From a virus (lineage: Duplodnaviria; Heunggongvirae; Uroviricota; Caudoviricetes), in IMG/VR virus record IMGVR_UViG_3300042923_000692, positions 26,709 to 90,708 of that record: DNA of 64,000 nt; one strand, written 5' to 3'. The notes under the pieces are model-generated. The model did not search any database and was not told where the DNA came from. It saw only the letters and a list, made by a program, of their open reading frames with translations. Positions within the stretch are counted from its first letter, which is position 1. Each line of letters begins with the position of its first letter. Made by a program: the position numbers and the translations under genes. This document shows, one piece after another, positions 6,129-57,453 of this stretch.

Positions 6129-6560
6129 TCAATCTGTTCCACTGGTTACCTCATATCGTACGGTCGGGATCCCAGCCTTCTCAGCGAGGTCTGCACACAT
6201 GGTTGCTCCTCGGCTAGCATCCCTGATGAATGCAAGACAAATATCCGCACCAAGCTTGACCATCTTGGCATTACGAACATATCCCGCACGCCGACATGTT
6301 CGCCAACCTCGACACGTTTCGGAGCAGTCTGGCTGGTGATTTCTCCACTGAGCCGGATGAATCTCCACCTTGCATCCGAAAGCATGACCCAGATTACCAG
6401 CCAGAGTGTCAGCCCCACTGGCCCCACCATGCACAATAGTCACATCGTAATCACCCGGAAATACCGTCACTCCAGTCTCGCGAACAATTACATCGGCGAT
6501 AGCCTGCGCGACAGAACCATCATCAATCCAATTACGACTACCCGTGACGAGAATACGCAT
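6129..6560 (-). CDS. SLOG/DUF2493-family (DprA/Smf-like Rossmann) protein
   Basis: start moved to MRILVTGSRNW; motif HGGASGADTLA. Confidence 0.6.
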   Translation of the reverse strand: MRILVTGSRNWIDDGSVAQAIADVIVRETGVTVFPGDYDVTIVHGGASGADTLAGNLGHAFGCKVEIHPAQWRNHQPDCSETCRGWRTCRRAGYVRNAKMVKLGADICLAFIRDASRGATMCADLAEKAGIPTVRYEVTSGTD

Positions 6561-6957
6561 GACGCTCCTTATCATACTTCTCGATGTAGTAGTTGTCAGT
6601 CTGATACTGAGCGTTGAACTCGTCAGCCAGAGCCTGAGCATTCTCTTTGGAAGCGACTTCGAGGATGGAATATCCGCCATCATGTCGCTTGACCTTCGTG
6701 ACCCAAAGGTCTTCGTCGGTTGTCTCCGAGATCTCCGACACGGTGAAGATATACATGTCGTCGACGTTGGGGGCCTTTACAACTTCTGACGCACGAAGCT
6801 TCATGGATCCGTTCTCGCTACGAACCAGTACGATATCGCCATTCTTAAGACCGGACGCCACCCAGCACGTAGCCTTACCCTTTCGAGCAGTCTTGTCCCA
6901 GTTAAGAATGTTGAGGTTGTGTCCCCAGCGTCCGTGTGTGAAGTCGTGCTCAGTCAT
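6538..6957 (-). CDS. hypothetical protein (139 aa; start MTEHDF)
   Basis: the track's 214-aa version has a low-complexity S/T/R N-terminal extension; the internal ATG at 6957 gives an 8-nt overlap with the upstream gene. Confidence 0.5.
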   Translation of the reverse strand: MTEHDFTHGRWGHNLNILNWDKTARKGKATCWVASGLKNGDIVLVRSENGSMKLRASEVVKAPNVDDMYIFTVSEISETTDEDLWVTKVKRHDGGYSILEVASKENAQALADEFNAQYQTDNYYIEKYDKERHAYSRHG

Positions 6958-7204: not shown

Positions 7205-7567
7205 TTAGTTTGAATTTGTGGAGGCGTGGCCAAATGCTGCATCACGGAGATCCTGCGCAGCACGTGTGTACTTCTTACTGTTTTTGATGACATTGATCAT
7301 TGCGCCACCCTGCTTGCTTACTCGCACCAGCATGCAGAGTCGACTCGTGGCGATATGACGAACCGTCGCCTGGTTGTTCACCATGTAGTCCGGGAATTCA
7401 GGAATAACCCTATAACCACGAATAATTCGAGGATCCTGCACGATCTTGTCGCACTTATGCAGAGGCTCACCGCACATCGCACAGACTGCCTGGAACTTGC
7501 CACAGTCCATACAGATGATGTTGGTTACGACCTCATATTCTGAATGATCGTGAGCAGTTTCACTCAT
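7205..7567 (-). CDS. Cys-rich hypothetical protein
   Basis: 120 aa; CMDCG...CAMCG. Confidence 0.5.
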   Translation of the reverse strand: MSETAHDHSEYEVVTNIICMDCGKFQAVCAMCGEPLHKCDKIVQDPRIIRGYRVIPEFPDYMVNNQATVRHIATSRLCMLVRVSKQGGAMINVIKNSKKYTRAAQDLRDAAFGHASTNSN

Positions 7568-8880
7568 GCAGCAACACTCTCATTACCTGTGAATCGTCGA
7601 ATCGGGATGACGTTGTCATTCTTGGGTTCTTCCTTTCTAAACGGAGATTTGTCACCGAACATTTCCTTCTCGTAAGTACGCTCGTTGAAGGTTTTCTTGG
7701 TCATCAGGGTTTTCCAGATGGCCTTATCGATGGGGGCGGTTGAACGAAGAATATAGTAGAACAAATCTACATACTTCGTGTTTAGACGATCGATTCGTCC
7801 TTTCGACTGGTGGAATGCTTTCCAAGAATATGGGAGGCTATAAAACGCAATAGCATCAGTACTAATACAGTTCCAGCCTTCAGATCCTGCAGTGTACTGG
7901 ACAAGGTAGATCCACTTGTCCCCGTCCGGGATTTTCTCATGTTTCTGTCCATTCCATTCAGCCAATGGATAATTGAGCGTCGTCCGAAGGGTCCTCAACG
8001 TATCCAACTCGTAGTTGAAGTTGTAGAAGATGATCAGACGAGGGTGCTTCTCTAGAATGCGTAGGATTTCTCCCAGACGGCTAGGGTCGCTGTTCGTAAG
8101 CTTTCGGCAGTAAGCCAAGAGGTCCGTGATACCTTGGAAGGGTTCTTCGGTATCAGGATTGAAACGTGACGCCACGACTTGCTTATACTTAGCATCATCA
8201 TAGTCGCTAAGAACATAGATTTCATGTCGTTTTGTATGCCGCTCGTATGGCATGTCAACCAGGATTTGGTCTCGAAGACGGTCGAGATGACCTGTTGCCA
8301 CGAATCGTTCCACTTTAGGGAATTTGCTAAAGCGGCTGAATACAGCATGTTCCCGAAGGAACTCCGACCTGTTCTTAAAGAAGCCATTAGCAACGAATAC
8401 TGGAATATAGTCCATCCAAGTATCCCCGGGCGTGGCCGACAGAAGGATCCATCGGTTGTTCGCGGCGATCTTGTAGAACGACTTAACCCAAGCACCCGAT
8501 CCGACCAACCGCTGCTCATCGAATATGAAGAAAGCATCAGTGATGTGTTCGTATTGACTGATGTTGTTCCAGGAGTCGACGTGCATTTGGACTCCATTTG
8601 GGTCGGATTCTCTAAAGAGTCCAAGTTTTCCTCCATCCAGTTCCCATTCCATATCATTGCGCTTCTTAGCCGTGGTGATGATATACAGATCCATGGGATT
8701 CTCCATGGGCTTTACTGTATCAACCACCCCCGGGATAATAGGCATACCCTTACATTCCTTCATGTAGTAATATGCCAACGCAGTGATTGTCTTACCGGTA
8801 CCGACTTCTCCGCGAAGAATCGACCCGTTGTGCATTTCGAGAATCGCCTGCATCTGATGAGGCATTAGACTGACGCCCAT
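7564..8880 (-). CDS. SF2 (SNF2/DEAD-like) DNA helicase
   Basis: 438 aa; Walker A GEVGTGKT, motif II FIFDEQR, C-terminal helicase motifs. Confidence 0.75.
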   Translation of the reverse strand: MGVSLMPHQMQAILEMHNGSILRGEVGTGKTITALAYYYMKECKGMPIIPGVVDTVKPMENPMDLYIITTAKKRNDMEWELDGGKLGLFRESDPNGVQMHVDSWNNISQYEHITDAFFIFDEQRLVGSGAWVKSFYKIAANNRWILLSATPGDTWMDYIPVFVANGFFKNRSEFLREHAVFSRFSKFPKVERFVATGHLDRLRDQILVDMPYERHTKRHEIYVLSDYDDAKYKQVVASRFNPDTEEPFQGITDLLAYCRKLTNSDPSRLGEILRILEKHPRLIIFYNFNYELDTLRTLRTTLNYPLAEWNGQKHEKIPDGDKWIYLVQYTAGSEGWNCISTDAIAFYSLPYSWKAFHQSKGRIDRLNTKYVDLFYYILRSTAPIDKAIWKTLMTKKTFNERTYEKEMFGDKSPFRKEEPKNDNVIPIRRFTGNESVAA

Positions 8881-11009: not shown

Positions 11010-11430
11010 TTGTCCCCTTTCAAGAGATACCCATAATTGTGACCACAAAAAGATAGGGTATGGGGGCCGCGCCGATAGCCGACGAGACCCCCATATAATC
11101 AGGCGCCCGAGAATGATCCCGGGAACAGTTCCAGCTGTCTGTGACTTCGCCACCTCTGGAAAGGCGCTTATTGGTAACATAGTTACCTGCATATATACCT
11201 GATAGCGCGGTTTTAACTAACTCATCCACAGGGGGGCCTAACCCCCATAAACTTTCGGTGCGGCGCCACACCGCTCACGTACCGGCTGCTGCATGATACA
11301 ACCTGCCATTACCCCAAGTATCACAGGGGCACCGATACCGCACTGGACCTAAGAGCTATTTAAACTCGTCCAGTCGAGTTCCCACATACCGAAGATCTGG
11401 GAGTAGGTCAAACCTTCGGGCTGAAGGATA

Positions 11431-13155: not shown

Positions 13156-13542
13156 TTAGCGATCGTATGGTGGCGAGACGACGGTAACGAGATTGACGTT
13201 AACCTTATTTCGCGGCTCATACTTATGGATATCCGTCCGATCGACTGGGAAGTAGACGGTTTCGACCTTCTCCGACCATTCGTTGTAATGGTCTTGCTTC
13301 TGCATGACATATTGCCCAACATCCACACGGGCAGTAAGCGCCCAACGATCGCTCGCTCGGGTGTTCTCAGCTTCACGCTCAGCGTAGAATTTAATCGTCT
13401 TCGGCTTACCGATAACCTCGGAGATCTCAACCTTGCCACAACCCATCCAACGAGCGACGTCGTAGATGTTGTCATCGGTGAGAAAGACCGAAACCAGAGG
13501 GATCGGAGCAGTCTGCCAGTTCTGAAACTGGAGAGCAACCAT
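13156..13542 (-). CDS. hypothetical protein
   Basis: 128-aa ORF; preferred over the overlapping 13140..13538 frame, which is Arg/Ser low-complexity. Confidence 0.5.
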   Translation of the reverse strand: MVALQFQNWQTAPIPLVSVFLTDDNIYDVARWMGCGKVEISEVIGKPKTIKFYAEREAENTRASDRWALTARVDVGQYVMQKQDHYNEWSEKVETVYFPVDRTDIHKYEPRNKVNVNLVTVVSPPYDR

Positions 13543-14105
13543 TAGCCCTCGAGCTCCAGCATCTTCTCGAACTCGACCTGCTCAGGAGTGGACTCCTGCC
13601 AGACCAGCACGTTCTGTGCCGACTCGAGCTCGGGGACGTCTGCGTAACGAAGCTCCAGCTCGTCCTCACGAACGGTACCGAAGAAGGTCTGCAGGTATGC
13701 GGTGACCGTGGTACGACCGTCCGGCCAGTCCCGCTTGTACTTGCTGAAGATGAGGTCGATCTTGGCGAAGTCTGCCCAATCGAGCATGGCGAGCATGTCC
13801 TCGGTGAACTGACGACGACCCTTCGACGTGATCACGAAGATCTTCGGCGGGATATTGCTGTCCATGTTGACGTTGATCTTAAGGTGGGCCTGAGGGATCT
13901 CACCCTCCTCGCGAGGCTTGAGATACTTCACGTTGAAGCCCTCTGCCTCAAGAGCCGCTGCCACGTCCGGCGGAAGCAGAAGATGGAAGTTGCGCTTGCC
14001 GGCGGCGTTGAAGTTACCTGCGGCTCCCGCAAAGTTTCGGAATGTAATACGGGCCTCGTCGACGAGGAACTTTCCGTCGTCCTGGCGTGCGAGCTGATTT
14101 GCCAT
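13542..14105 (-). CDS. gp2.5-like (DUF2815-type) single-stranded DNA-binding protein
   Basis: 187 aa; N-terminal pattern ARITFRNFAG..GNF..GKRNFHLLLPPD resembles T7 gp2.5/DUF2815; acidic C-terminus. Confidence 0.45.
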   Translation of the reverse strand: MANQLARQDDGKFLVDEARITFRNFAGAAGNFNAAGKRNFHLLLPPDVAAALEAEGFNVKYLKPREEGEIPQAHLKINVNMDSNIPPKIFVITSKGRRQFTEDMLAMLDWADFAKIDLIFSKYKRDWPDGRTTVTAYLQTFFGTVREDELELRYADVPELESAQNVLVWQESTPEQVEFEKMLELEG

Positions 14106-14566: not shown

Positions 14567-14762
14567 CAGTTTTGTTCTCCTTACGAGACTTGATCTCGGC
14601 TACGACCTGTTGAATTCGACGTTCGTACACCGTCCAGTAATGAAATTCCTTGAGAAGTTGACTCTCGCTAAGATCCTTTAGATCTTTAACGTAAGATTCA
14701 TCGTGAACATCTTCTTCGGTCTCAACTCCGTGAGCGGAATATGTGACCTTATCGTCAGCCAT
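14553..14762 (-). CDS. hypothetical protein
   Basis: 69-aa ORF. Confidence 0.45.
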   Translation of the reverse strand: MADDKVTYSAHGVETEEDVHDESYVKDLKDLSESQLLKEFHYWTVYERRIQQVVAEIKSRKENKTDGKA

Positions 14763-15198
14763 CAGTTTGTCTCCTTGTTACTGGCCACACATACGGAACA
14801 TCTGTTGTAATTCCTGGGAAATGCCGCCGGTAGTATTCTTCGTTTTTACGAAGTAGATTGGATTGGTGTGAAATATGGAGCTCGATGTTACCCATCCACG
14901 GTGGTGGAATCAACGGAGTGGCCATCGGTTCGACAATGACGTCCAGAAATATAAGACGTGTCTTTTCCCAACACGTATCCTGGAAGCCGCGAACCGATGA
15001 CCACTCGTGACACACCGCCTGCTGATAAGCAAGCAGCGCTCGTTCATACCCTTCCCACATCAGCACCGCCGGGTGATTATCCCAGCCACTCCCACCGTAA
15101 GCGAGAGCCTGCATGATCTGAAGAGTTTCCACTCTTTGCTTACCGAGTCGCTTATCGTCAAGAACTCGAGCGCTCCATGTGAAATCATCCCAAGGCAT
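14755..15198 (-). CDS. hypothetical protein (weak resemblance to pyrimidine-dimer DNA glycosylase N-terminus)
   Basis: 147 aa; VLDDKRLGKQRVETLQIM resembles the EndoV LxDxHLxAExRE helix, not conclusive. Confidence 0.45.
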   Translation of the reverse strand: MPWDDFTWSARVLDDKRLGKQRVETLQIMQALAYGGSGWDNHPAVLMWEGYERALLAYQQAVCHEWSSVRGFQDTCWEKTRLIFLDVIVEPMATPLIPPPWMGNIELHISHQSNLLRKNEEYYRRHFPGITTDVPYVWPVTRRQTDG

Positions 15199-15330: not shown

Positions 15331-18300
15331 TTATGCCGCCTGTACCAGTTCGTACTGCGAGTCGACAAACCACTCGAACGTCAGCAGATCCGTAGTGAAT
15401 TTATTGATCGTATCGATCGCCTCGTCCACCAGTCGTTCGAAGTACTTGATATCGATCTGGTCCTGTAGACCCAGAGTCTCCACCATCTCAGCTTCGAGCC
15501 AGAACCATCCCTTAGCGCCAGTTGCGGAAGCGAACTTACCATCCTTCTCACGAAGGAGATATCCACCACCAGCATTCGGCTCCATAGGACAGAACGAACC
15601 AGCCTTACCGACGAATCGCATATTGTTCTCGTCGAGATCCTTAGCCAGAGCCATCGGAGTGTCCTCGATACCCGTGTAGTCGATGTAAAGAGCGGTCGTA
15701 ACCGTCTTCGTCTCGCACAGATCCTTGAACTCGATATCTTCGTGACTGAACAGACGCTTGAACACGTACGGATGAGCAAACTGAGCCCCCGTAGCGTCCC
15801 ACTTACCATCAGCCTTCTGTGCAATATAGACTGCGTCGTTAACCAGGGCCATCTTGCGATAGGTTTCCTCGTGCTCGAAGTCATATCCATACTTCGCACC
15901 AAAGTCCATGACGAACTGGATGATCTCAGGCGTAGCATTCGGGATCTTGATGGAGTCCGTCTTGATATGGACAACCTGGAACCCCTGCTCCTGAACCGCA
16001 TGTTTCAGATCGATCATAAACAAAGCGCCACGCTTTGCCACGATGTTGTCGATATTCCGCGGGTCCTTGAACGGGTTGTCGAATCGCGCGCTCGTCAGCC
16101 CATAGACCGAGTTGATCGCGATCTTCAGAGCGTCCGAAAGGGCCTTCGCCATCATCGGGTCACTCAAATATCGAGAGATCTTCTCGCCGAGAAGCTCCTT
16201 GACCTTATCGACATCCTTGCGCTTGATCGCCACACGAGCGGTCTTGATGGTGGAGAACTTCTCCGTGAACTCGCCGAACATATCCAACTGCTCGATCGAG
16301 GTCGGATGCATCGATGCGACGTCCAACACGGCGACGTTCTCGTAGACACCCGGCTCAGCATAGACATATCCACCCTCGCCAGTGATCTCGTCACGGTAGG
16401 TCGACTTGCCCATCTCGTACTTGTATCCCGGGAACATTTCCCCGAGGTCCGTGTACTTGAACTTGCTCTGAGGCTTACGCTCTTCCCCGAAAATGATCTT
16501 CGTGGTGTGAGCGTTCGTAGTCGCGTTCATCGGAAGACCCGAAAGCTCCGACAGAATCTGGCGAGCAATAACGTCAGGCTCGAGGTGGTTGCGCACCACG
16601 TTCGTTGCCCAGACGTCGTTGCAGCAGTACTCTGCGACCTTATCCCAGAGTTCCTTCGGAACCGGCTGATCCCACGGAATACCAAGCTCGAGGTGGTGAA
16701 TACCGAGGGTAATCTCCCACTTCTTCAGCCCCATCTTGACCGTGGCAACGTCGTAAAGGTCCATGTACGAGAGGTTGTAGGCCTCACCGAACAGGGCGTT
16801 CGGAACGTTACCGATGATCTTCTGCGAGAGGTTGTACAACTGCTGGTTGTTGAATCCCAGATATGCACCGTACAGGATATGGTTGTCGTAGCGACGGTTG
16901 TTGAAGCCAACGAGCTTCATACCGAGAAGCTGCTCGACCTCTCGCTGCGACGGATTGATCATCGTAACGATCGATTCCTTCGGAGCATCCTTGTACATCC
17001 AGCAGATAACGAACAGGTTCGGGAAGACCTCAACGTCGAAGAGGACTTCCTTATCCGCGTTAAGAGTACGCTCACTCTTGAAGGTGTCGGGCACCTCGGC
17101 AGCCGCTTCGAGACGACCCTCTGACGCGAACTTCATGTCCTGGACCAGCTTCATAGCTGGCATCGCCTGATTTGTGCTGAGCGACGCAAACGAGAAGATC
17201 TTGTTACGCTGGTCCGTGACATCATAAACCAGCCCATCCTTATAGGCCTGCTCCAGAATATGATGGATGAAGTCGACGTTAGTCTTGGTACCTCCGGGAC
17301 TCGCCTCCTTACGGAGGGCTTTATTGATGAGCGCGCGGATATGACGTTCATCCGCGAGCTTATTGACATCCATCGATTTCTTCTCCTTCAGCGGAAGTCC
17401 GCTGTTAATTGTGGCGATTGGGACGTTGTTACACAGCGACAGTCGTCTACGCAGTGCGCTATTTCCCTTGTAGACCTTAACTTCGATTCCATCATCATAG
17501 CTGTAGCTAAGCTCTTCAACGGCTCCGTCATAATAGTAATGGAGATGGATCCCATCACCGCTCTTACTAAACTCGGCGTAGGTGGCGGGCCATGTTGAGG
17601 CCGCCTCGAGGTTTCGTTCGGCAGACTTTTTACCGTCCTTGTCCTTAAGATCGAAGTCGATCACGATTAGGTTCTCAGGAACCTTAACGTAGTGCTCTTG
17701 TGTCGTGTCGAGATCTTTTAGAACCGTCGAAACAATAGCGTCTGGCTCGGGTACGAACTCAACAGTCTTACCGAGTTTATCATCGAACTTGGATCGAACC
17801 GAATTATCCCAATATAGACGCGGGTTACCCTGCGAATTGGTGTACTGAGCCGGAAACTTAGCGAGTTCTTTGTCGAGAAGAGACTCAGTTTCCTCCATGA
17901 CGAGTGAGAACATATGCTGGGGTTCTGACTTTCCGGTAGGCGACTTGAATTTATCTGCCTTAAAGCCAGAATAATAGGATCTGACTCGCTCCCCATTAAT
18001 ATCCACTGCGCGATCTTCGAAAGACTCAAAGTAGTTGCGGAATTCTTCGCGGAACCGATGCTGGGGCATCTTCCATTCCGTTTGAGTATCCACTACCCAA
18101 AGCTTCCATAGGTCCCATGCCTGCCGAAGCGTGGCGCCGTCCTGGGCCTTGAAGATATCGTAGTGTGTTTCAATGAAGTTGAAGAACACATCCGTTTGCA
18201 GCATCATCTCAATCGGCTTGTATTCTGCGTAGTAGTGCTTCCCCATGCTCTGGTAAACCTCGTGACAGTGCGCAGCAATGGCGCCCAGTTCGAATTTCAC

Positions 18301-19281
18301 CTGAGTCATAAGACTCTGATACTTGCGCGCAGGCAACAGCCGCTCGGAGGGATGAATATCGATCGTCCTACGAATAAGACCCGACTTGGAGTCGGTGAAC
18401 TTAACCGCAGAGTTCGAGCCAATGATGAAGAACGTGTCAAACCGACTCGTGTAAAGCGGCTTATTCTTCTCATTGATTTGGATGGGCTCGTGAGAAACCA
18501 TCGAGTTGAACTTGGTGTTGTCCTGAATCTTACTCAGGTCACCATCGTGATCGATCGCGAGAAGCGGATTCATTTTGAAGGCTTCCAGCGCAAACGCATT
18601 GCTCGCGCTGGTAAGCTCCTTCGCGTTGAACGCCTCCCAATATCCCTCAAACAGCATCTGGATGATGTTGATGATGGTACCCTTACCCGTACCCGGAGCA
18701 CCGTAGAAAATGACGAACTTCTGAATCGTCTTCGAGTCACCAGCGACAATTGAGCCGATGGTCCACTCGATTTTCCTACGCTCCTCCGGGTCGTACAGGG
18801 TGCTAACGATCTCTTCCCATGCCGGAGCTTCCCCGGGAGAGAGATCGTAGGGCAGTCGCTTTGTTACATAGTCCTCTTTCTTCACCTCACTGTTCTTGAA
18901 CGTGAGATGATCATCCAACTGGTGAAAGTTGTTCTCCAGATGACCAACATAGTTTCGGTAAGTCAGCCACGAATTCGTGTTGAAGTTTCCGAGCGTCTTG
19001 CGATAAATATCGAAAAGACCGGGTGTTTGGACCTCATAATTACGAATATCGGCATCGATCAGACGCTGAACATCGAATTCGTCTGTCGACCAAAGCTGTC
19101 TCTCTTCGTCCCAAATGGCGTAGAACTGCTTCCCCCGCACCATCAGGTCCTTCGATCGCTTAACTCGGAAGGACGGGTAAACCTCGAGAATTGCCTTCTT
19201 CTGGTTACCCGCCTCCTTCTCGAGAATCTCGTAGAAATCGAGAGTCTGCTTGCTCTTAAACGTATCGTTTACTTCGGTCAT
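15331..19281 (-). CDS. replication megaprotein: SF3/D5-like P-loop helicase + AEP primase + family-B DNA polymerase (3'-5' exo + pol)
   Basis: 1316 aa; Walker A GAPGTGKGT (~aa 200); AEP motifs VIDFDLKD and SGDGIHLHYYY (~aa 550); PolB ExoI FDVEVF, ExoII FNNRRYDNHILYG, ExoIII YCCND, motif A DVASMHPTS, motif B KIAINSVYG, motif C HIKTDS. Confidence 0.8.
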   Translation of the reverse strand: MTEVNDTFKSKQTLDFYEILEKEAGNQKKAILEVYPSFRVKRSKDLMVRGKQFYAIWDEERQLWSTDEFDVQRLIDADIRNYEVQTPGLFDIYRKTLGNFNTNSWLTYRNYVGHLENNFHQLDDHLTFKNSEVKKEDYVTKRLPYDLSPGEAPAWEEIVSTLYDPEERRKIEWTIGSIVAGDSKTIQKFVIFYGAPGTGKGTIINIIQMLFEGYWEAFNAKELTSASNAFALEAFKMNPLLAIDHDGDLSKIQDNTKFNSMVSHEPIQINEKNKPLYTSRFDTFFIIGSNSAVKFTDSKSGLIRRTIDIHPSERLLPARKYQSLMTQVKFELGAIAAHCHEVYQSMGKHYYAEYKPIEMMLQTDVFFNFIETHYDIFKAQDGATLRQAWDLWKLWVVDTQTEWKMPQHRFREEFRNYFESFEDRAVDINGERVRSYYSGFKADKFKSPTGKSEPQHMFSLVMEETESLLDKELAKFPAQYTNSQGNPRLYWDNSVRSKFDDKLGKTVEFVPEPDAIVSTVLKDLDTTQEHYVKVPENLIVIDFDLKDKDGKKSAERNLEAASTWPATYAEFSKSGDGIHLHYYYDGAVEELSYSYDDGIEVKVYKGNSALRRRLSLCNNVPIATINSGLPLKEKKSMDVNKLADERHIRALINKALRKEASPGGTKTNVDFIHHILEQAYKDGLVYDVTDQRNKIFSFASLSTNQAMPAMKLVQDMKFASEGRLEAAAEVPDTFKSERTLNADKEVLFDVEVFPNLFVICWMYKDAPKESIVTMINPSQREVEQLLGMKLVGFNNRRYDNHILYGAYLGFNNQQLYNLSQKIIGNVPNALFGEAYNLSYMDLYDVATVKMGLKKWEITLGIHHLELGIPWDQPVPKELWDKVAEYCCNDVWATNVVRNHLEPDVIARQILSELSGLPMNATTNAHTTKIIFGEERKPQSKFKYTDLGEMFPGYKYEMGKSTYRDEITGEGGYVYAEPGVYENVAVLDVASMHPTSIEQLDMFGEFTEKFSTIKTARVAIKRKDVDKVKELLGEKISRYLSDPMMAKALSDALKIAINSVYGLTSARFDNPFKDPRNIDNIVAKRGALFMIDLKHAVQEQGFQVVHIKTDSIKIPNATPEIIQFVMDFGAKYGYDFEHEETYRKMALVNDAVYIAQKADGKWDATGAQFAHPYVFKRLFSHEDIEFKDLCETKTVTTALYIDYTGIEDTPMALAKDLDENNMRFVGKAGSFCPMEPNAGGGYLLREKDGKFASATGAKGWFWLEAEMVETLGLQDQIDIKYFERLVDEAIDTINKFTTDLLTFEWFVDSQYELVQAA

Positions 19282-25565: not shown

Positions 25566-27170
25566 CTATCGAACGAAGTTGGCGATCAGAGCCGGTGCGT
25601 TCGAGTCGAACCCTGCGATATCCAGGGCATTGAGATCGGACGGATCCGCCATCGAGAACTTGTTCGCAGTCACCGCGTTAACGATGATCTTCGCGTTCAC
25701 TCCCGAGACATGACGGTATCGCTCGAGCGCCTGGAACGGGTGGTGGTAACCCAGACCGTTCTCGTTGTCCGTGAAGAGAACGAAGGCGTCGACCTTCATG
25801 TCCTTCTGCAGAGCATCCATCATCGGGAGGGAGAGGTTTGTGCCCCGGAAGGGGAACGCGCCAGTCTCAGTCATCACAGTCTCGAGGGAATCCCGAGCGG
25901 TGATGTTGAGGAACTCCATCCGATCCTGGAAAGCACCGAAGTAGTGCTCACGCTCCGTTCGAGCCACCACCATCGCCATAACCGCGGCGATCTCACGAGG
26001 TGACAGCGGAACCTTGTCGGAAATCCGAGAAGGACCATCCATCGACTGTGAAACATCGATGCCGAGGTAGTGCGCCTTGCCGGTGGGCTCGACCGCAGCG
26101 AAGGAACCGTAGAACGATCCCTCGAGCGCTGCAACGATCCGACCAACGGGAGACCACTGGCTACGCTCGCCATATCCCTGACCGTAAGTACGCATCGCGA
26201 TGAGCGCATTGACGGGGTGGATACGAGCCTTACGAAGCTCGTCCGAGTCGGTGAGTCGATCCTCGATTCGTCCGGTCCAACCACCGAGTTGCGTGATCAG
26301 CCCCAGGTTGGTAAGACGAGGAAGCTGGCGGATGAGCGCCCCAAGAGGCACGTTTCCCTCGAGAAGGGCCTCCCACACGGGGACATCGTTCAACACTTCG
26401 GTCGGAAGCATCTCCCACGAGAGACCATACTCGCGGATGATACGAGGAATATCCCGAGCGTCAGCGGTCTTGGCGATCTCGAAGCCCTGAACGACACGAG
26501 GAAGTTCCTCGATCGCGACAGACTTACCAAGCGCCCAGTCCAGAAGCGGACCAGAGGAGGGACGGTCGCTCGACTTGACGTACTTCGACAGACGAAGCGT
26601 ACGAGAGTGATCGAACCCACCGCGCTGACGGTACTTGACCATCTGGTAGGCAAGCTTGTCGACCGGCTTCTCGTTGTACCAGCGTCCGATCGCCTTCTTG
26701 AGACCCGTTCCGCCCAGGTTCTTGAACTGGGACAGATATCCGAGGAACTCGAAAAGGGTCGAAGCCGTCCGAGCGACTGCCTGGATCGCCTGGAATCCGA
26801 GGTTCTTCACCTTCGGGTCTTCCGTCGAGGCGATCACCAGAGCCAGAGCGAACAGACCAGGAGACTGGCTCGGCGCCCGGCCAGAAACTGAAACCTCTGT
26901 GATGAGGTCGATCAGCTCGATAGCCCGGTCGGACTCGGCGAGCTTCTTGATCGTCTCGGCGTTCTTCATGGCGAGCTTGCCGCCGGCCTGGTAGAACGAG
27001 GACTCCGATCCGAGGATCAGGAATCGCTCGGCACGCTTCATGTCATCGATCTTGAAGACGTATCCGCCCTGGTGGCTCTTGACCTGGTCGGGGGTGGCGC
27101 GGACTGTCGCGGGGGTCGTGTTTCGGTGTGCTGCGTGTCCAAATGACACACCGCGGAGTGAGTTGGGCAT
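25566..27170 (-). CDS. rsr: Ro60 orthologue (Rsr): TROVE domain + C-terminal vWA
   Basis: 534 aa; TROVE-like N-terminal region; MIDAS-type GIDVSQSMDG in the C-terminal vWA; GAAGGAG SD. Confidence 0.75.
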   Translation of the reverse strand: MPNSLRGVSFGHAAHRNTTPATVRATPDQVKSHQGGYVFKIDDMKRAERFLILGSESSFYQAGGKLAMKNAETIKKLAESDRAIELIDLITEVSVSGRAPSQSPGLFALALVIASTEDPKVKNLGFQAIQAVARTASTLFEFLGYLSQFKNLGGTGLKKAIGRWYNEKPVDKLAYQMVKYRQRGGFDHSRTLRLSKYVKSSDRPSSGPLLDWALGKSVAIEELPRVVQGFEIAKTADARDIPRIIREYGLSWEMLPTEVLNDVPVWEALLEGNVPLGALIRQLPRLTNLGLITQLGGWTGRIEDRLTDSDELRKARIHPVNALIAMRTYGQGYGERSQWSPVGRIVAALEGSFYGSFAAVEPTGKAHYLGIDVSQSMDGPSRISDKVPLSPREIAAVMAMVVARTEREHYFGAFQDRMEFLNITARDSLETVMTETGAFPFRGTNLSLPMMDALQKDMKVDAFVLFTDNENGLGYHHPFQALERYRHVSGVNAKIIVNAVTANKFSMADPSDLNALDIAGFDSNAPALIANFVR

Positions 27171-27291: not shown

Positions 27292-27336
27292 ACTCGGGTT
27301 TGGACATCTAGACAGGTTTGTGATATTCGACTTTTT

Positions 27337-27426
27337 AGACAGTTGCTCTGCCGATTGAGCTACACGTCATAGAGACGCGACGGGACTTGAACCCGTAACA
27401 CACGGATAACCGAATATCTTGGATCT
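27337..27426 (-). ncRNA. Y-RNA-like module 7 with permuted tRNA-like domain (YrlA-like)
   Basis: order T-arm ACGGG-TTCAAGT-CCCGT, acceptor 3' strand CGCGTC, loop TCTAT, acceptor 5' strand GACGTG, D-arm GCTC-AATCGGCA-GAGC. Confidence 0.5.
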
Positions 27427-27443
27427 AGATGGACTTGGGATTC

Positions 27444-27561
27444 AGACAGGGAATTGATGATCGATAAGCGTGTTGCCGATTACACTACGAAGCTAATGCT
27501 TCGGTGGGATTCGAACCCACAATACTCTTTCCGCATAAGATAACCGATCAAACTTGGATCT
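27444..27561 (-). ncRNA. Y-RNA-like module 6 with permuted tRNA-like domain
   Basis: T-arm GTGGG-TTCGAAT-CCCAC, then CGAAGC-ATTA-GCTTCG acceptor hairpin, then D-arm GTGT-AATCGGCA-ACAC. Confidence 0.5.
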
Positions 27562-28004: not shown

Positions 28005-28130
28005 TAGACAGGGTGGTTGACGATTGGGTATAAGCGCTCTGCCGACTGAGCTACACGATGCACGCACCATGACGGGACTCGAACCCGCGACCTCTCCATT
28101 AACAGTGGGTAACCAATCATCTTTGGATCT
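28005..28130 (-). ncRNA. Y-RNA-like module 1 with permuted tRNA-like domain
   Basis: AGATCCAAAG start; T-arm GCGGG-TTCGAGT-CCCGT; acceptor strands ATGGTGC / GCATCGT; D-arm AGCTC-AGTCGGC-AGAGC; 9-bp terminal helix CCAATCGTC/GATGATTGG. Confidence 0.45.
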
Positions 28131-28139
28131 ATCGTTTCG

Positions 28140-28212
28140 CTCCTACACCAGGACTCGAACCTGGAACCAACGCATTAACAGTGCGACGCTCTGCCAATTG
28201 AGCTATGTAGGA
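28140..28212 (-). tRNA. tRNA-Asn (anticodon GTT), canonical order
   Basis: cloverleaf: acceptor TCCTACA/TGTAGGA, D-arm GCTC-AATTGGCA-GAGC, anticodon loop CTGTTAA, T-arm CCAGG-TTCGAGT-CCTGG. Confidence 0.7.
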
Positions 28213-30855: not shown

Positions 30856-30887
30856 CGGTTACTCCCATTTTGATTGAATTGACGCAG

Positions 30888-30956
30888 TACTTACGACGGG
30901 ATTCGAACCCGCATCCTAAGCCAGAGGCTCAGCTCTACCAGTTAAGTTACGTAAGT
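30888..30956 (-). tRNA. tRNA (canonical order; anticodon uncertain, possibly TCT/Arg)
   Basis: acceptor ACTTACG/CGTAAGT, T-arm GCGGG-TTCGAAT-CCCGT; D and anticodon arms irregular. Confidence 0.45.
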
Positions 30957-55199: not shown

Positions 55200-57425
55200 T
55201 CAGTACGCGTAGAACCAGTCGGTGTCGATGCCGTGCGGGAACGAGTAACCCGTAGCCGGACGTGCCTCGACCTCGGTCGACTCGGTGATCGCGGGCAGGG
55301 CGCCAGCGGTCTGCTCGACGTTGTCGATGTAGTACTTCACACCGGTCTGAGCGGGGATGGTGATGACGTGAGTCGCCGGCACGTAGGTCGGCTGCGTCGG
55401 GGTAACCACCGTACCGAGGTTCTTCTTGATGACGAGAGCCGACTTGGGCTTCGTCAGCGCACCCGAGATGCGGGACTCGATGAGGTACTTGTACTGGTTG
55501 TAGTCGATGTCGAAGTCATCGAACATGCCAATACGGCCACCAGCGTCAGCACCAACCGTGTAGTCCTGCAGGTTGACGATGATACCGAGGATCTCAGGAG
55601 TGTCCTCCATGACCTCGACGGTCACGATGCGAGACACGCGAAGCGCGGCCGCAAGCGACTCCTGCGTCTCGTAGAGACGACGGCCAACCTTGTCCTTCTG
55701 CAGGATGAGGTCGGTGAGGATCTCGTCCGTGGTGAAGAGGACGGGGTTGCCCGAGCCCTTGTAGTTACGACGAGCGTAGAGGATGCCCTCGACGATGTCA
55801 TTCGCGGACGACTCAGCCGCCAGCGTGACAATGTGCGAGTACATGTCGTGATCGAACGCGATGGGCCGAATGTGGTCCTCGTCGATCTTGTCCTCGTCGT
55901 CAACCTCGCGGCCGTCACCGATGAGGATCGCACGCGCGATTTCCTCATCGAGCATGAGACGCATCTCAGCCTTGAGCCAGGCAACGACGTCCAGGTCGAC
56001 GATGTCGATGATGTCGTCACGGTCCAGCTTCTGCTTCTTGTAGACCGTGGTGGGCGTGGTCACTCGCTTCAGGAGCTTGATAACCTCGTCCTTCTTCATG
56101 TTGCCCTTGACGTAACCCTTGGCACGCGCCTCTTCGGCGGTGATGTCGGCCACGAGCGTCTTGATGCGCGAGAAGGGCGAGTGACGGGTGCCCTCGAGCA
56201 CCGTCGCGACCCACTCGGTACGACGCTTGAGGAGCTCAGGCGTGTTCTGGAGCGCCTTGGCGTCCGGGAACAGGAGGTCGATATCGATGATACCATACTC
56301 CTGAGCGTGCGCAAGGATGGCCTCCTTGAGCGAGCCGTCACGCTTGGCGTCGGACATGATGGTGTCAAGCTGCGAGTGGCTCAGAGTAGCCTGGCCCGAG
56401 CCGGTCGAAGCGTCGCCGGTGAGGCCGGCCTGCTCGAAGAGGTTGTGTCGCATTGCGTCGAATCCTTCCTGGATCTTAGAGTCGAAGTGAGCAAGGAAGG
56501 ATTCCTTGTCATCCTCGGAAATGCCGGTCTGAGCAAGCTCGCCGGAATCGGTCTCAGCGAGAGCTTCTCCGATAAGATAAGCAACGACCGCCTTCTGCTC
56601 CTCCGTGAAGGAGTCATAGACGTCCTGGACCGTCTTGTCTTCGGCGTGCTCCAGGGTGTTGTCGGTGGGCATGTTGTCTCCTTCAGTAGACGTTTCATAG
56701 GAGTGAGCGAGAGCTTCTCCAATGAGGTGATGAACCACAATCTTCTGAGCACCAGTCAGCGAGTCAAAGACCTGCTGCATGTTGTCGTCGGCGTGCTGAA
56801 GGGATTCGGTAGAGTCGCCCTCAGCGTGCACAAGTGCCGCCTCGAGAAGGTGGTGAACAACGACCTTCTGGTCATCATTCAGGGATCCGAGGACCTCCTG
56901 AACCGATGTGTCGGTGTCGTCTTCGATGATCGATTCGGCGCCATTTTCAGAATGAACAAGCTCAGCAAGAGGCTGCTCGTTGAAGATGTACGCCTCGTGC
57001 TCATCCTCGATGAACGAATCCCCGTGAACGAGGTTAACGTTCTCGATAACGGCGCCAGGATTGGCTCCGGCAAGCACCAGACTGACCTCGCGAATATCGC
57101 CGTGGTAAACCTCTCGACCGCCGTCTACACGACGCTCATTGAGATTGTTGGCGAAGATCGAGAGAGCTTCGATGTCCTTGTGCTGGACCATGAACTTGGC
57201 CTGCTGGCCAGCTTCACTCGCGTTGAAGTATCCATGACAGAATACTCCGAATGCGCGGTCTTCGAGAATGGCATGACCGAGGACGGCGCCCGGGTCATTG
57301 TGCTGATGCTGCCAGACGAGAGGAACCTTCTTCTTGTCCATGTGCGCAAAGGCACCAGACTTGATGGTTCGACCGTCGGAGCACTTCTGGTCGTTGACGC
57401 TAGCCCAGCCGCTAAAGTCGGGCAT
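55200..57425 (-). CDS. prohead serine protease - scaffold-like repeats - HK97-fold major capsid fusion protein
   Basis: start likely second ATG (MPDFSGW) after a GGGAGA SD; HK97 gp4-like protease region (GDIREVSLVLAGANPGA); three QK(I/V)VVHHL(I/L)(G/E)EALAH repeats; C-terminal capsid-like region. Confidence 0.65.
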   Translation of the reverse strand: MPDFSGWASVNDQKCSDGRTIKSGAFAHMDKKKVPLVWQHQHNDPGAVLGHAILEDRAFGVFCHGYFNASEAGQQAKFMVQHKDIEALSIFANNLNERRVDGGREVYHGDIREVSLVLAGANPGAVIENVNLVHGDSFIEDEHEAYIFNEQPLAELVHSENGAESIIEDDTDTSVQEVLGSLNDDQKVVVHHLLEAALVHAEGDSTESLQHADDNMQQVFDSLTGAQKIVVHHLIGEALAHSYETSTEGDNMPTDNTLEHAEDKTVQDVYDSFTEEQKAVVAYLIGEALAETDSGELAQTGISEDDKESFLAHFDSKIQEGFDAMRHNLFEQAGLTGDASTGSGQATLSHSQLDTIMSDAKRDGSLKEAILAHAQEYGIIDIDLLFPDAKALQNTPELLKRRTEWVATVLEGTRHSPFSRIKTLVADITAEEARAKGYVKGNMKKDEVIKLLKRVTTPTTVYKKQKLDRDDIIDIVDLDVVAWLKAEMRLMLDEEIARAILIGDGREVDDEDKIDEDHIRPIAFDHDMYSHIVTLAAESSANDIVEGILYARRNYKGSGNPVLFTTDEILTDLILQKDKVGRRLYETQESLAAALRVSRIVTVEVMEDTPEILGIIVNLQDYTVGADAGGRIGMFDDFDIDYNQYKYLIESRISGALTKPKSALVIKKNLGTVVTPTQPTYVPATHVITIPAQTGVKYYIDNVEQTAGALPAITESTEVEARPATGYSFPHGIDTDWFYAY

Positions 57426-57453
57426 ATGGTCTCCCATTTTGAAGATCTCCTTT

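Follow-up and report, generated by a model that had tools for sequence, protein, structure and literature searches.

The fusion of a superfamily 3 (SF3) helicase, an archaeo-eukaryotic primase (AEP) as well as a DNA polymerase of family B (PolB) was described in 2016 and exemplified by gp55 of the Lactococcus phage 1706 (Kazlauskas et al. 2016, PMC4889955). The group was later named HelPrimPolB and placed within the main PolB group as a divergent member of its EpsilonN-like clade, and its motif C and KxY motif were found to be profoundly different (Kazlauskas et al., NAR 2020, PMC7544198). GP55 has been purified and characterised as a "four-in-one replicase" that acts as a helicase, as an RNA primase, as a DNA polymerase and as a 3'-5' exonuclease (Zhang, Lu, Zhu and Huang, NAR 2025, PMC12205980). 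Here, a related gene is analysed that lies in a stretch of 64,000 nucleotides from a virus of the Caudoviricetes (IMG/VR record IMGVR_UViG_3300042923_000692, positions 26,709 to 90,708), called "the window" in the following. Based on sequence comparisons, its product, the window protein, is very probably an orthologue of GP55 and, thus, the HelPrimPolB replicase of a siphovirus-type actinobacteriophage that is related to the Microbacterium phage Count.

The properties of GP55 are the background for the comparison. Its helicase is dependent on UTP or dTTP, and not on ATP, it needs millimolar concentrations of these nucleotides, it confers strand displacement, and it collapses upon deletion of the PolB domain. 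Initiation with GTP at 5'-CCAAC-3' and similar sites is preferred by the RNA primase, the activity of which depends on a new domain of four helices, the alpha-helical domain (aHD). GP55 is mainly a dimer and replicates single-stranded M13 DNA de novo efficiently. The helicase activity was abolished by the mutation K189A, de novo DNA synthesis was lost in the mutant D509A, in which the AEP aspartate is exchanged and PolB is intact, priming was abolished by mutations of Y655 and F667, and D712/E714 turned out to be essential for the exonuclease activity (all PMC12205980).

Comparison with GP55 of phage 1706

The window protein and GP55 (YP_001828703) have 1316 and 1317 amino acids, respectively, and the order of SF3 helicase, AEP, aHD and PolB is the same in both. 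BLASTP aligned residues 14-1292 of the window protein with residues 1-1293 of GP55 at 38% identity (E=0). With 60% identity the AEP domain was conserved best, and the lowest values were obtained for the N-terminal domain (26%) and the thumb region (29%); the loops of the thumb region are rearranged relative to GP55.

Conservation was scored in an alignment of 14 sequences that spans the family. All GP55 residues whose mutation abolished an activity are kept in the window protein. K200 (GP55 K189) and D544 (GP55 D509) are invariant in 14 of the 14 sequences, and F698 (F667), D749/E751 (D712/E714) and D987 (D949) are also invariant. Y686 (Y655) is a tyrosine in 13 sequences and a phenylalanine in the remaining one. 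Further invariant residues are the candidate Walker B aspartates, sensor 1 and arginine finger of the helicase, and D799 and D889 of the exonuclease. GP55 and the window protein share the motif C pattern H-[IV]-KTDS, and it is found in all 14 sequences, with H1105, K1107, T1108, D1109 and S1110 being invariant.

Motifs, domains and predicted structure

According to the open reading frame (ORF) listing, the replicase gene is a single frame of 1316 codons plus stop that starts with ATG and is free of internal stops. The purine-rich sequence AAAGGGGG is situated directly upstream of the ATG. The motifs were located in the protein with a script (Table 1). A preliminary description of the stretch, made from the letters alone, had proposed an uninterrupted frame with a P-loop helicase, an AEP primase and a family-B polymerase in this order, and all motifs that it quoted were found where it had placed them, including the lysine instead of the first aspartate of motif C (K1107).

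The results of the family searches agreed with this order. PHROG 4210, annotated as "DNA polymerase", matched the protein from end to end (phrog_4210, residues 14-1308, E=0), and the ORF is, thus, judged from its sequence, far beyond chance. Other PHROG families matched in part, i.e., primase-helicase families at residues 128-447 and PolB families at residues 726-942. Pfam detected DUF5906, a D5-family P-loop domain, at residues 192-305 (E=6e-14), and a match to Prim-Pol below the threshold at residues 535-583. In a sequence search against PDB, the helicase part matched the SaPI5 primase-helicase (7ola) and the C-terminal region of NrS-1, and residues 969-1111 matched E. coli Pol II, in an alignment that stopped with HIKTDS opposite YGDTDS. 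A canonical KxY motif is absent from the PolB module.

The protein exceeds the modelling limit of 1200 residues, and it was therefore modelled as two overlapping pieces, based on an alignment of 27 homologues. The AlphaFold model of the PolB piece (residues 720-1316) had a pLDDT of 86 and a pTM of 0.80. A Foldseek search with this piece retrieved family-B polymerases of archaea, E. coli Pol II, Pol alpha and the polymerase of African swine fever virus (ASFV) with a probability of 1.0, and all of the top 50 neighbours were RNA/DNA-primed PolBs, while none was phi29-like. Independent fold evidence was obtained for each of the three enzymatic modules. Four helices were predicted at residues 645-656, 668-681, 689-700 and 706-714, and this prediction matches the published description of the aHD. 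The domain in front of the P-loop has the residues F53, Y54, W57 and W64 in common with the rest of the family; the helicase domain of GP55 was defined as residues 1-439 and, thus, includes this N-terminal domain (PMC12205980).

Table 1. Coordinates of the replicase gene, its predicted domains and motifs, and the neighbouring replication genes in the window.
Feature	Position	Strand	Residues	Motifs or evidence
Whole replicase ORF, probable HelPrimPolB / GP55 type	15331..19281	-	1-1316	Homology to PHROG 4210, GP55 and Count gp75
N-terminal domain, beta-rich	18892..19281	-	1-130	Predicted strands 17-65, helices 69-114
D5-type SF3 helicase domain (predicted)	17932..18891	-	~131-450	Assigned: Walker A G194-T202 (K200), Walker B D246/D248, sensor 1 N290, arginine finger R304/R305
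Walker A / P-loop	18676..18702	-	194-202	GAPGTGKGT
AEP catalytic domain, PriS-like / PrimPol (predicted)	17362..17721	-	~521-640	Motif I IVIDFD (D542, D544); motif II SKSGDGIHLH (H579, H581); motif III probably GIEVK (E600)
AEP motif I			540-547	VIDFDLKD
AEP motif II			574-584	SGDGIHLHYYY
aHD, four predicted helices	17122..17361	-	~641-720	Between AEP and PolB
PolB 3'-5' exonuclease subdomain (predicted)	16462..17121	-	~721-940	phrog_1252 DNA polymerase, 726-942, E=2e-47
ExoI			748-753	FDVEVF (D749, E751)
ExoII			793-805	FNNRRYDNHILYG, including YDNHIL (D799)
ExoIII			885-889	YCCND (D889)
PolB polymerase subdomain, i.e., palm, fingers and thumb (predicted)	15334..16461	-	~941-1316	
PolB motif A			987-995	DVASMHPTS (D987)
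PolB motif B			1053-1061	KIAINSVYG
PolB motif C			1105-1110	HIKTDS (K1107, D1109)
Conserved protein, 195 amino acids	19300..19887	-		phrog_4678; 18 nt upstream of the replicase gene
Phage single-stranded DNA-binding protein, homologue of 1706 GP66	13542..14105	-		Pfam PF24083, E=6e-53; BLASTP versus GP66, E=3e-20
SF2 helicase, homologue of 1706 GP67	7564..8880	-		phrog_62 DNA helicase, E=6e-54; 39% identity to GP67, E=1e-111

Occurrence in other phages

A tblastn search of 50,697 phage records yielded 475 records with a match to the window protein, and in 252 of them one hit covered at least 80% of the query. The best match was gp75 of the Microbacterium phage Count (84.9% identity). The identity was 50-64% for other Microbacterium, Arthrobacter, Gordonia and Streptomyces phages, 47-50% for human-oral siphovirus contigs, and 35-39% for Lactococcus phages. 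Count gp75 and the Arthrobacter, Gordonia and Streptomyces genes are full-length orthologues with the same flanking genes. These actinophage orthologues are known from their sequences, and their labels name the primase and the polymerase and omit the helicase; the GenBank homologues as a whole are almost all labelled "DNA primase/polymerase" or "DNA polymerase".

In a large protein collection at least 7,997 homologues were found at E<=1e-10. One protein from JGI is 100% identical to the window protein; it is labelled "hypothetical protein" and is encoded on a metagenome contig of 95.6 kb. In addition, the segment comprising AEP and aHD was compared with 1.84 billion cluster representatives, of which 399 matched with E<=1e-3 and 208 with E<=1e-30. 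Of the best 150 among the 399 representatives, most were proteins with 1250-1450 amino acids that contain the segment at about positions 480-700.

Genes around the replicase

The gene directly upstream of the replicase gene encodes a conserved protein of 195 amino acids, which had no match in Pfam or PDB. With tblastn it was found in 236 phage records, and the genera and their counts were nearly those of the full-length replicase; in Lactococcus phages it was not detected by this search. In every example that was checked the gene was located directly upstream of the replicase gene, with gaps of 14-44 nt. Judged by this linkage, the protein may be a partner or an accessory subunit of the replicase. 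On the other side, directly downstream of the replicase gene, a pyrimidine-dimer DNA glycosylase is encoded (14755-15198, minus strand; Pfam Pyr_excise, E=8e-22), and the same arrangement is present on the JGI contig.

The genes for the single-stranded DNA-binding protein and the SF2 helicase are, like the replicase gene, located on the minus strand. Because genes for a GP66-like and a GP67-like protein accompany the replicase gene, the replication module known from phage 1706 is, by homology, kept here as a set. A second DNA polymerase was not found among the 30 ORFs of the window that were scanned. The ORFs 6129-6683 and 13542-14105 (both minus strand) match different parts of phrog_16939, i.e., positions 1-123 and 128-292, respectively. 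In some phages the single-stranded DNA-binding protein may, thus, form one chain with a domain that has a gene of its own in the window. Within the early/replication gene block a full-length match to the self-cleaving Pistol ribozyme (RF02679, model positions 1-68) is situated at 11312-11379 (minus strand), and its score of 42.7 bits is above the gathering score of 34.5.

The window represents a phage genome of the siphovirus type. Its structural genes encode a large terminase, a portal protein, a protease/capsid protein, a major tail protein, a tape measure protein of 1701 amino acids and minor tail proteins, and its genes for nucleotide metabolism encode a thymidylate synthase and MazG-like pyrophosphohydrolases. 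The ORF of 745 amino acids at 55200-57437 (minus strand) matches families of head maturation proteases as well as major head proteins, which suggests a protease-capsid fusion.

An additional region of the window contains an orthologue of Ro60 with TROVE and vWA domains (25566-27170, minus strand; Pfam E=3.5e-50 and 3.6e-30). It is followed by three matches to YrlA (Y RNA-like) at 27321-27416, 27470-27522 and 28033-28095 (minus strand). All three are below the threshold, and the best of them has 45.4 bits (E=9e-8), compared to a gathering score of 69. Together, the Ro60 orthologue and the YrlA-like matches look like a phage-borne Ro60/Y-RNA module. Genes for tRNA-Asn(GTT) and tRNA-Arg(TCT) adjoin this region (28139-28212 and 30887-30956, both minus strand). 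The related phage Count also encodes RtcB.

Discussion

The order of helicase, AEP primase and family-B polymerase that the preliminary description had proposed is supported by the family searches, by the homology to GP55 from end to end and by the colinear full-length ORFs in 252 phage records. The domain mapping that it had suggested as a check identified the N-terminal P-loop region as an SF3 helicase and the C-terminal part as a PolB fold. The sequence features that characterise HelPrimPolB proteins were all found in the window protein, namely the colinearity with GP55, the SF3 motifs, the AEP aspartate, the tyrosine and the phenylalanine of the aHD, the motifs Exo I-III, the aspartate of motif A, and the divergent motif C and KxY. 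From the conserved residues we infer that the window protein would have the same four activities as GP55.

Several observations weigh against a simple transfer from GP55 to the window protein. The AEP domain was below the threshold in searches with sequence alone (Pfam Prim-Pol, E=0.014-0.1), and a PDB profile search found no match for it; the assignment of this domain is based on the fold match, the register of the motifs and the GP55 mutant data. The model of the N-terminal piece was of modest confidence (pLDDT 77, pTM 0.45). The window protein as a whole is only 38% identical to GP55, its N-terminal and helicase parts are 26-33% identical, and it has insertions of 23 residues before the AEP domain (494-516) and of 19 residues at 1201-1219. 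Because the identity is only 26-38%, the nucleotide preference of the helicase, the specificity for the primer site and the oligomeric state cannot be predicted from the sequence, and it is in these properties that the window protein would most probably differ from GP55. The two phages also differ in kinship and base composition; phage 1706 is a Lactococcus phage with a GC content of 33.7%, while the window phage is a relative of Microbacterium phages with about 52% GC.

The fusion had been called unusual in the preliminary description. This is true in comparison with the classical D5-type primase-helicases, e.g., vaccinia D5 and its monkeypox virus (MPXV) counterpart E5, ASFV C962R, and the proteins of SaPI5 and NrS-1. 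In these proteins the AEP domain is N-terminal to the helicase, whereas the order is reversed in the window protein, in which the helicase (about residues 131-450) is followed by the AEP domain (about 521-640) and by PolB (721-1316). In addition, the D5-type proteins are devoid of a PolB module, and they have a PriL-type or helix-bundle accessory domain in contrast to the aHD of GP55 and the window protein. In the NrS-1 primase-polymerase a single active site both primes and polymerises. The fusion is not new, however, because the family with this architecture is already published, named and assayed. Pas55 of the Actinoplanes phage phiAsp2, a fusion of an SF3 helicase, a DnaG primase and PolA (Kazlauskas et al. 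2016), is built on the same principle, i.e., a single chain that starts with the helicase. According to its description it has a DnaG-type primase and a family-A polymerase, both of which are unrelated to those of the window protein, and it is, thus, analogous and not homologous.

The mechanism has been demonstrated for GP55, and for the window protein it is inferred by homology. The N-terminal D5-type SF3 NTPase would unwind the duplex and displace the non-template strand; in GP55 this part also mediates dimerisation. The AEP domain together with the four-helix aHD would lay down short RNA primers de novo on single-stranded DNA. Primers of at least 4 nt would then be taken over by PolB, either in cis or in trans from a partner subunit, and extended with dNTPs, and the 3'-5' exonuclease of the polymerase would proofread the product. 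The GP66-like single-stranded DNA-binding protein and the GP67-like SF2 helicase encoded nearby would complete the replication module.

Other explanations were considered for the length of the ORF, for its motif C and for its helicase module. An assembly or sequencing error could have joined separate genes for a helicase, a primase and a polymerase, and a fusion by frameshift had been named as a possible refutation in the preliminary description. The probability of such an artefact is negligible, because the same unbroken architecture is present in the 252 independently sequenced phage genomes as well as in most cluster representatives among the matches listed, and because the expression and purification of GP55 yielded one protein of 1317 amino acids. 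The lysine in motif C had also been taken as a hint to primer-independent polymerases. If this were correct, the PolB module would be self-priming like the primer-independent PolB (piPolB) of the pipolins (Redrejo-Rodriguez et al. 2017, PMC5695915), and the AEP domain would be redundant or would have another purpose. Both are family-B enzymes, piPolB has an active exonuclease, and both lack the first aspartate of motif C and the KxY motif (PMC5695915, PMC7544198). However, piPolB has a threonine at the position in question (SxTTDG) and is further characterised by the pattern KH-X8-KTRG and by the subdomains TPR1 and TPR2, which protein-primed PolBs have as well (PMC5695915). TTDG was not found in residues 720-1316 of the window protein, and neither KTRG nor the KH-X8-K pattern was found in the protein. 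The closest folds and sequences belong to PolBs that depend on a primer (archaeal PolB, Pol II, Pol alpha). HelPrimPolB was placed among RNA/DNA-primed PolBs and, within the main PolB group, in the EpsilonN-like clade (PMC7544198). Moreover, piPolB is a stand-alone enzyme that primes with its polymerase site, whereas the window type has a dedicated AEP domain for priming. No other part of the protein is as well conserved as this domain, and a GP55 variant with an exchanged AEP aspartate and an intact PolB was devoid of de novo synthesis. Self-priming by PolB is, thus, very improbable and was rejected. The lysine is a substitution of the whole lineage and not a marker of self-priming, and it is compatible with full polymerase activity because metal binding needs only the second aspartate; the first position of motif C is dispensable for catalysis (PMC7544198, PMC5695915). 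Protein-primed replication was also set aside, because the neighbours of PolB are not phi29-like and the homologue GP55 contains a working primase; no search aimed at a terminal protein or at terminal repeats was made.

The third question concerns the SF3 module, which might not be the fork helicase but mainly an aid for dimerisation, DNA binding and strand displacement, while the SF2 helicase (7564..8880) would perform the bulk of the unwinding in vivo. Such a division of labour would fit the observations that GP55 is mostly a dimer and not a hexamer and that its helicase has the high nucleotide demand and the dependence on PolB described above. In addition, the SF2 helicase is kept together with the replicase in the window, in Count, in Scap1 and in 1706. 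However, GP55 does unwind DNA, the exchange K189A abolishes this unwinding, and GP67 is regarded as a homologue of RNA helicases by the authors of the GP55 study. Furthermore, the Walker A and Walker B motifs, the sensor 1 residue and the arginine finger are invariant in the family. An arginine finger implies NTP hydrolysis between subunits. A mere auxiliary role of the SF3 module is, therefore, unlikely, and the genuine helicase within a GP55-type replicase is preferred. A further, rather doubtful proposal concerns two features of the actinophage members of the family, the 195-amino acid protein and the divergent motifs. The protein might be a dedicated accessory subunit, e.g., for loading, origin recognition or processivity, and the invariant His-x-Lys of motif C and the loss of KxY might be adaptations to the very short RNA primers made by the AEP domain.

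The family to which the window protein belongs is already known; it was described in 2016, named in 2020 and assayed in 2025, and hundreds of phage genomes in GenBank carry its annotation. The window protein is an ordinary member of this family. Strictly, this particular orthologue is itself undescribed, yet it is at no distance from the known kind. Only mildly new are the tight linkage of the replicase gene to the uncharacterised gene for the 195-amino acid protein in actinophages and the many host genera of the phages with this gene (236 genomes). Taken together, helicase, primase, polymerase and proofreading on one chain represent a striking design of a minimal replisome, which is also of practical interest for primer-free DNA amplification, a point that the earlier work on GP55 has raised and tested. 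The window adds one more orthologue, from a relative of Microbacterium phages, in which all functionally tested residues of GP55 are kept at an identity of 38%.

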